From Escherichia coli (lineage in GTDB: Bacteria > Pseudomonadota > Gammaproteobacteria > Enterobacterales > Enterobacteriaceae), in NCBI RefSeq assembly GCF_024502345.1, contig NZ_JALDNN010000001.1: a stretch of DNA of 64,000 bases; one strand, 5' to 3'. The notes beneath the pieces were generated by a model. That model was given only the letters and a program-made list of their open reading frames with translations. It did not search any database and was not told the DNA's origin. Shown here in pieces: positions 5,906-6,181 of the stretch (position 1 is the stretch's first letter; every line of letters starts with the position of its first letter). The position numbers and the translations under genes are program-made.

Positions 5906-6181
5906 ATGAGAACCAAGGTACAGGCTTTACGGAAGAAACAAAAAAATACATTGGATCAAATATTTAAAACTCCTGTTCCTCAAGGGATCAAGTGGTCTGA
6001 TATAGAGTCACTGGTTAAAGCATTAGGCGGAGAAATTAAGGAAGGAAGAGGTTCGCGTTGTAAGTTCATACTAAATATGAGCGTTGCGTGTTTCCATCGG
6101 CCTCATCCGTCGCCAGATACCGATAAAGGCGCTGTAGAAAGCGTGCGTGACTGGTTACTAAGTATAGGGGTAAAACCATGA
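5906..6181 (+). CDS. Putative type II toxin, HicA/YcfA-like
   Basis: 91 aa; W-x-D-x-E, LG..., G-R-G-S-R-C-K-F and H-R-P-H-P segments resemble HicA-family toxins; ATGA overlap with the downstream antitoxin-like ORF. Confidence 0.55.
   Translation: MRTKVQALRKKQKNTLDQIFKTPVPQGIKWSDIESLVKALGGEIKEGRGSRCKFILNMSVACFHRPHPSPDTDKGAVESVRDWLLSIGVKP

Follow-up and report, generated by a model that had tools for sequence, protein, structure and literature searches.

A HicA-like toxin branch with arginine at the position of the canonical catalytic histidine, represented by a widespread hicAB cassette of Escherichia coli

Is a HicA-like toxin that carries arginine where the catalytic histidine is expected a damaged copy, or does it belong to a branch of the family that is built differently? 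To our knowledge, mechanistic work on HicA has throughout regarded the histidine of the Gly-Ser-His turn as catalytic and as a hallmark of the family. The question is raised by an open reading frame of 91 codons (positions 5906–6181, + strand), an intact hicA-like toxin gene in a stretch of 64,000 nucleotides of Escherichia coli DNA, hereafter referred to as the window. The codons GGT TCG CGT TGT at 6050–6061 encode Gly49, Ser50, Arg51 and Cys52 of this reading frame, and the turn thus reads Gly-Ser-Arg (G-S-R). As pointed out in the original prediction, which had located these codons correctly, CGT (Arg) is one base away from CAT (His).

The gene is part of an ordinary, already annotated hicAB cassette on the chromosome. 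In the window, rbbA and yhhJ on the + strand are followed by the hicA-hicB cassette and then by nikR-nikE-nikD on the - strand, which places hicAB between yhhJ and nikR, with hicB and nikR convergent. The hicB-like antitoxin gene (6178–6537, + strand) encodes 119 amino acids, and its ATG start shares four bases (ATGA) with the TGA stop of hicA. RefSeq names the pair HicA family toxin and HicB family antitoxin. The two-gene operon with adjacent hicB that is typical of the HicA family is therefore present, and the same pairing is found in the Klebsiella, Vitreoscilla and Acinetobacter loci. The antitoxin matched the Pfam HicB family with 56.8 bits (cut-off 21) and PHROG 9151, 'HicB-like antitoxin'. 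Its C-terminal part is predicted to be of the ribbon-helix-helix type: residues 74–117 matched the Arc-like repressor family phrog_582 (E 1.3e-6), residues 76–116 gave weak Arc, CopG and FitA-RHH matches in Pfam, below the thresholds of these families, and the Arc repressor was reached weakly in the PDB (E 0.27). Class 4 hicAB operons, as described by Gerdes 2024, have hicA upstream and a HicB whose C-terminus holds a ribbon-helix-helix domain (PMC10865869); the locus agrees with this class in its hicA-to-hicB order and in the predicted ribbon-helix-helix domain of its HicB. Neither NCBIfam nor PADLOC contained a model matching the 91-amino-acid or the 119-amino-acid protein.

Upstream of hicA, a consensus scan detected a sigma-70-like hicAB promoter (TTGACT, 16-nt spacer, TACTAT; 5845–5872, + strand; 9 of 12 matches), located 34 nt before the ATG. 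A repeat search combined with reading of the sequence revealed four operator-like 8-bp boxes of the form TGAnnTCA, namely TGACTTCA, TGATGTCA, TGATGTCA and TGAAGTCA (5846–5893), which start at 5846, 5859, 5873 and 5886 and are thus spaced by 13–14 bp. The boxes overlap both promoter hexamers (-35 and -10) and form an imperfect palindrome; in the repeat search, the region appeared as a family of 24-nt direct repeats and as an inverted repeat of 21 nt with 71% complementarity. Since autoregulation by HicB proteins of the ribbon-helix-helix type is known (PMC10865869), the boxes are probably the operator bound by this HicB, and their layout is presumably that expected for the operator of a tetrameric ribbon-helix-helix HicB. 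At the other end of the cassette, a terminator scan found an A+T-rich hairpin with a perfect 15-bp stem (AACTGAACTTAATTT/TAT/AAATTAAGTTCAGTT; 6592–6624) between hicB and nikR, which converge. This terminator-like element is predicted to act on the + strand.

The 91-amino-acid protein was assigned to the HicA family by profile comparison. It matched Pfam HicA_toxin (PF07927, COG1724) with 37.7 bits, where the gathering score is 27 (E 2.2e-9), and residues 30–80 covered profile positions 1–52 of 58. A single-sequence phmmer search of the protein against PDB sequences gave no match, a profile of the clade reached the HicA structure 9svk weakly (E 0.21), and hhalign matched the clade alignment to one of canonical, Burkholderia pseudomallei-type HicA sequences without gaps (probability 84%, E 7.4e-6). 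The AlphaFold2 model, calculated from an alignment of 54 homologues (pLDDT 94.8, pTM 0.86), has helices at residues 2–6 and 10–19, followed by alpha1 (30–39), beta1 (43–46), beta2 (51–56), beta3 (59–64) and alpha2 (74–86), and thereby contains the dsRBD-like alpha1-beta1-beta2-beta3-alpha2 fold of the HicA family. Model and alignment together delimit a clade-specific N-terminal extension in codons 1–29 (5906–5992, + strand), which consists of the first two helices and leads into a conserved P23...W30 segment, and which is missing from the canonical HicA of about 60 amino acids. Within the extension, none of the 54 aligned sequences departs from L16 or P23, T15, I19 and F20 vary very little, and all five residues are still dominant in the 147 cluster representatives considered below. 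We conclude that the protein is a HicA homologue for which the canonical catalytic mechanism is not to be assumed. Numerous database entries for this toxin family (e.g. P0052, P0055, P0058 and P0077) bear the name 'hexulose-6-phosphate synthase', which on HicA-like proteins of about 91 amino acids is evidently a propagated misannotation.

The placement of Arg51 in the column of the catalytic histidine had rested on a manual alignment, which proved to be right in the Pfam match, in the comparison with 9svk, in hhalign and in the AlphaFold2 model. Residues G49-S50-R51 (6050–6058, + strand) form the beta1-beta2 turn, and beta2 of the model begins with R51; in the HicA toxins studied so far, the catalytic histidine is found at the start of beta2 (PMC12297915). 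The clade profile set 'eGsRvk' on 'rGSHyq' of 9svk, and the hhalign columns equate G49-S50-R51 with Gly22-Ser23-His24 of B. pseudomallei-type HicA, H64 with Thr37, P66-H67-P68 with Pro39-His40-Pro41, D71 with Asp44 and G75 with Gly48. The glycine and serine of the Gly-Ser-His turn are thus present and Arg51 replaces its histidine. Elsewhere, the catalytic end retains its canonical residues, with G49 and S50 at the positions of G22 and S23, and P66, P68, D71 and G75 at those of the beta3-alpha2 loop residues P39, P41, D44 and G48; P66 and P68 are strongly conserved in the clade, and D or E at position 71 and G75 predominate. Could the alignment nevertheless be wrong, so that H64 or H67 is the true counterpart of the catalytic histidine and nothing is missing? 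These two near-invariant histidines lie only 13 and 16 positions downstream of R51, and the low similarity to canonical HicA (21% identity in hhalign, besides the weak match with 9svk) leaves room for such an error. However, three independent alignments were ungapped and set G-S-R on G-S-H and P-H-P on P-H-P, the model has R51 at the very site of the catalytic histidine in solved HicA structures, and H67 aligns with His40, a residue other than His24. We therefore consider a misplaced histidine very improbable.

The replaced residue is an important one. Equivalents of His24 are needed for toxicity or RNase activity in the HicA toxins of B. pseudomallei, Yersinia pestis, Streptococcus pneumoniae and Neisseria gonorrhoeae (PMC12297915, PMC3969222), and the exchange H24A abolishes the toxicity of B. 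pseudomallei and N. gonorrhoeae HicA (PMC12297915, PMC3969222). Together with the single base that separates CGT from CAT, and with the decayed hicA alleles that exist in some E. coli lineages, the essential role of the histidine in the tested toxins speaks for a view that follows one possibility named in the original prediction and in which a recent CAT-to-CGT change would have attenuated or killed the toxin of a decaying toxin-antitoxin locus. The conservation of the G-S-R tripeptide, by which its relevance was judged rather than by chance of occurrence, contradicts this view. All 119 closer homologues, which reach down to about 55% identity and stem from Enterobacterales, Azospirillum, Acidobacteriota and metagenomes, have arginine in column 51, and G49, S50 and R51 are all invariant or nearly so in this set. 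The clade profile was further searched against 1.84 billion cluster representatives and matched 2,447 clusters at E<=1e-3, of which 1,021 reached E<=1e-10. Among the best 147 representatives of 50%-identity clusters, which come from several phyla, G49 is present in 145, S50 in 144 and R51 in 142; the other residues in column 51 are alanine (two), methionine, serine and histidine (one each), the sole histidine belonging to a distant, metagenomic member (P0214). At the 50% identity level, the clade comprises no fewer than 1,000 clusters, and it is spread over several phyla, chromosomes, plasmids and phages.

The codon usage at this position points in the same direction. Alleles of E. coli, the genes of Klebsiella aerogenes, Vitreoscilla, Acinetobacter and Deinococcus, and one on a metagenomic contig use either CGT or CGC for Arg51, and these synonymous changes imply that arginine itself has been kept. 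Comparison of orthologous loci for His or Arg, as proposed with the original prediction, accordingly gave Arg in E. coli, K. aerogenes and the other genera. A family that naturally lacks the histidine had been named there as the outcome that would speak against an inactivated toxin, and this outcome was obtained, with arginine as the conserved state in at least 1,000 clusters. As judged from conservation, R51 is hence shown to be a native, selected residue and no lesion, since it is the conserved state of a distinct HicA branch. The hicA gene of the window is not a point-mutated pseudotoxin; a recent point mutation with loss of the histidine, to which we assign next to no probability, is ruled out by the conservation data.

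Decay of hicA does occur in E. coli, in another form. The exact protein of the window was found on at least 1,000 contigs, and the locus is present in 2,070 of 5,426 complete E. coli genomes (about 38–40%). The yhhJ-nikR interval (5835–6660) is a variable site, with hicAB in about 38% of the complete genomes. Strain K-12 is without the cassette and has ISEc1, yhhH and rhsB after yhhJ instead, and K. aerogenes has the same hicAB beside nikR with another left neighbour; the association of hicAB with nikR is therefore older than the genus. A 55-amino-acid hicA allele (P0094), found on 588 contigs, results from a one-base deletion in codons 49–50, at the G-S-R site; in E. coli GCA_904809725.1, for example, the affected locus L009 (1201–1368) corresponds to window positions 6047–6056. 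In this allele the toxin is truncated, and hicB and the promoter are intact. Codon 2 of hicA in strain C2 is TAA (L002 1560–1650, corresponding to window positions 5860–5915), and a 14-bp deletion takes out one operator box and the -10 hexamer, while hicB is intact and identical to that of other strains. The allele class of strain C2 has about 95% identity, 788 genomes fall within the 90–95% band, and RefSeq calls a 76-amino-acid 'HicA' from a downstream start. Other frameshifted hicA products end near residues 60–68. The decayed alleles carry frameshifts or nonsense codons and not changes of R51, which is a further argument against R51 as a product of decay.

A second signature of the clade lies where strand beta3 ends and the beta3-alpha2 loop begins, a stretch to which alignment and model assign F63-H64-R65-P66-H67-P68 (6092–6109, + strand). 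Here, H64 is specific to the clade and takes the place of the canonical Thr37, so that the strand end reads H-R-P-H-P in the clade and T-V-P-H-P in canonical HicA. The motif F-H64-R-P-H67-P, followed by S-P-D-T-D-K-G-A, is near-invariant in the clade: H64 occurs in 144 of the best 147 representatives, P66 and H67 in 143 each and R65 in 129. The column triad of canonical HicA (His24, Thr37, His40) was found in 119–120 of 120 B. pseudomallei-type sequences compared, and its counterpart in this clade is Arg51, His64 and His67. Both groups share the triad's 12-residue spacing, and H64 is kept in all five cluster representatives without R51. The switch from His and Thr to Arg and His is a single evolutionary event; it represents a correlation and not statistical covariation.

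The model suggests how these residues may be arranged. Because beta2 (51–56) and beta3 (59–64) are connected by a two-residue turn, we infer that R51 and H64 form a cross-strand pair with their side chains on the same face. In B. pseudomallei HicA, Phe27, Val36 and Val38 are core residues (PMC3969222), and His24 and Thr37 consequently lie on the exposed face. Catalysis was sited at the end made by the beta1-beta2 and beta3-alpha2 loops of that protein, and His40 was described as 'close in space to His24' (PMC3969222). From strand register and homology, R51, H64 and H67 should likewise cluster at the catalytic end. The equivalent of His40, which is H67 here, is dispensable in gonococcal HicA (PMC12297915).

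These observations lead us to favour, with slightly more than even confidence, the interpretation that the protein belongs to a distinct HicA branch with native R51 and is a likely active toxin with a rebuilt catalytic end. A variant mechanism, the other alternative offered with the original prediction, is our best guess for the role of R51. H64, placed on the adjacent strand and facing the same side of the sheet, would supply the imidazole that canonical His24 supplies from beta2, and R51, possibly together with H67, would provide positive charge for phosphate binding or for stabilisation of the transition state. The 91-amino-acid protein would still cleave RNA, HicB would neutralise it by covering the catalytic end, as in solved HicAB complexes, and HicB would also repress the hicAB promoter through the four TGAnnTCA boxes. 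More tentatively, and with rather less than even confidence, we suggest that the histidine has moved from the start of beta2 to the facing end of beta3, with an invariant arginine in its old place and a two-helix module added, which would yield an RNase with new geometry and possibly with another RNA target than any HicA studied so far.

That the toxin is most likely active is supported by several lines of evidence, the first of which are the deep conservation of the polar cluster R51/H64/H67 and the overlap of hicA and hicB in the canonical form of a toxin-antitoxin operon. It is further supported by relatives that are located next to hicB on plasmids of Vitreoscilla (12.8 kb), Acinetobacter, Legionella and Shinella, and by the match of the 91-amino-acid protein to the phage protein family PHROG 8887, labelled 'toxin' (93.9 bits). 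In a tblastn search of plasmids, judged without replicon typing, no entry labelled IncI2 was found among the matches listed. Independent toxin-null alleles of E. coli with intact hicB also argue for activity, although neutral decay could equally account for them.

The main rival to an active toxin is that the G-S-R clade is without nuclease activity, and that its members bind RNA or a ribosomal component, or act as regulatory partners of HicB, with either no toxicity or a toxicity exerted by sequestration. This would be in line with the absence of the residue essential for canonical HicA toxicity and with the dsRBD-like fold, which is intrinsically RNA-binding, and the stable linkage to nikR in Escherichia and Klebsiella could mean domestication. 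However, R51, H64, H67, D73 and K74 are near-invariant at great depth (R65 less so, as noted above), and such conservation of a polar cluster is expected of an active site and not merely of a binding surface. The classic toxin-antitoxin operon, the plasmid relatives, one of them on a plasmid of only 12.8 kb, and the repeated losses of the toxin with retention of the antitoxin also do not fit well with a protein devoid of nuclease activity, which we regard as unlikely.

A separate observation concerns a metagenomic contig (L003 3001–9159) encoding a protein of 2,052 amino acids (P0226) with filamentous-haemagglutinin repeats and a C-terminal HicA domain of the G-S-R type. Downstream of its gene there is no HicB-like gene, and a RelB-like/YafQ pair is found instead. 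A polymorphic toxin is one possible reading, an artefact of open reading frame fusion another. Given the lack of a HicB-like immunity gene and the possible artefact of ORF calling, we attach little weight to it as evidence of a deployable toxin domain.

The G-S-R/H-R-P-H-P branch without the canonical catalytic histidine is not described in the literature that we searched. No report of a toxicity or RNase assay on a HicA of the G-S-R type was found, full-text searches for the motif FHRPHP or HRPHP and for arginine in place of the catalytic histidine in HicA returned nothing relevant, and catalytic residues are not taken up in Gerdes 2024 (PMC10865869). That a large and widely annotated HicA branch, including a gene present in about 38–40% of complete E. 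coli genomes, consistently lacks the Gly-Ser-His histidine is of importance whichever interpretation holds. If the branch is active, it represents a natural experiment in rebuilding the active site of a small RNase, and the annotation 'HicA toxin' is then not equivalent to 'His-dependent mRNA interferase'. If it is inactive, thousands of annotated toxin-antitoxin loci are something else.

Comparison with known systems sets the branch apart. HicA of B. pseudomallei (PDB 4C26, 6G26), with about 20–21% identity, has His24 and Thr37 at the positions of Arg51 and His64, and is without the 29 additional N-terminal residues that form two helices here. In the HicA3-HicB3 system of Y. pestis (PDB 4P78), His28 in the G-S-H turn of YpHicA3 is essential for RNase activity and corresponds to Arg51; YpHicA3 also has no N-terminal extension, and reads 'ITLPYP' where the clade has H-R-P-H-P. 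The HicA of Pseudomonas aeruginosa is of the canonical type and not of the G-S-R type. The hicAB system of E. coli K-12 (yncN/ydcQ, PDB 6HPB) is a separate, unlinked locus in a strain that lacks the one described here; its HicA has 58 amino acids and a G-S-N-H turn with His23, as opposed to 91 amino acids and G-S-R, and its HicB has a helix-turn-helix domain, as opposed to the predicted ribbon-helix-helix domain. Several type II toxin endoribonucleases of the RelE/MqsR type cleave RNA by means of arginine, lysine and tyrosine side chains, and arginine at the catalytic position alone does not, therefore, imply inactivity. These RNases have an unrelated fold, many of them are ribosome-dependent and they show no homology to the protein described here, so that the likeness is one of analogy alone.
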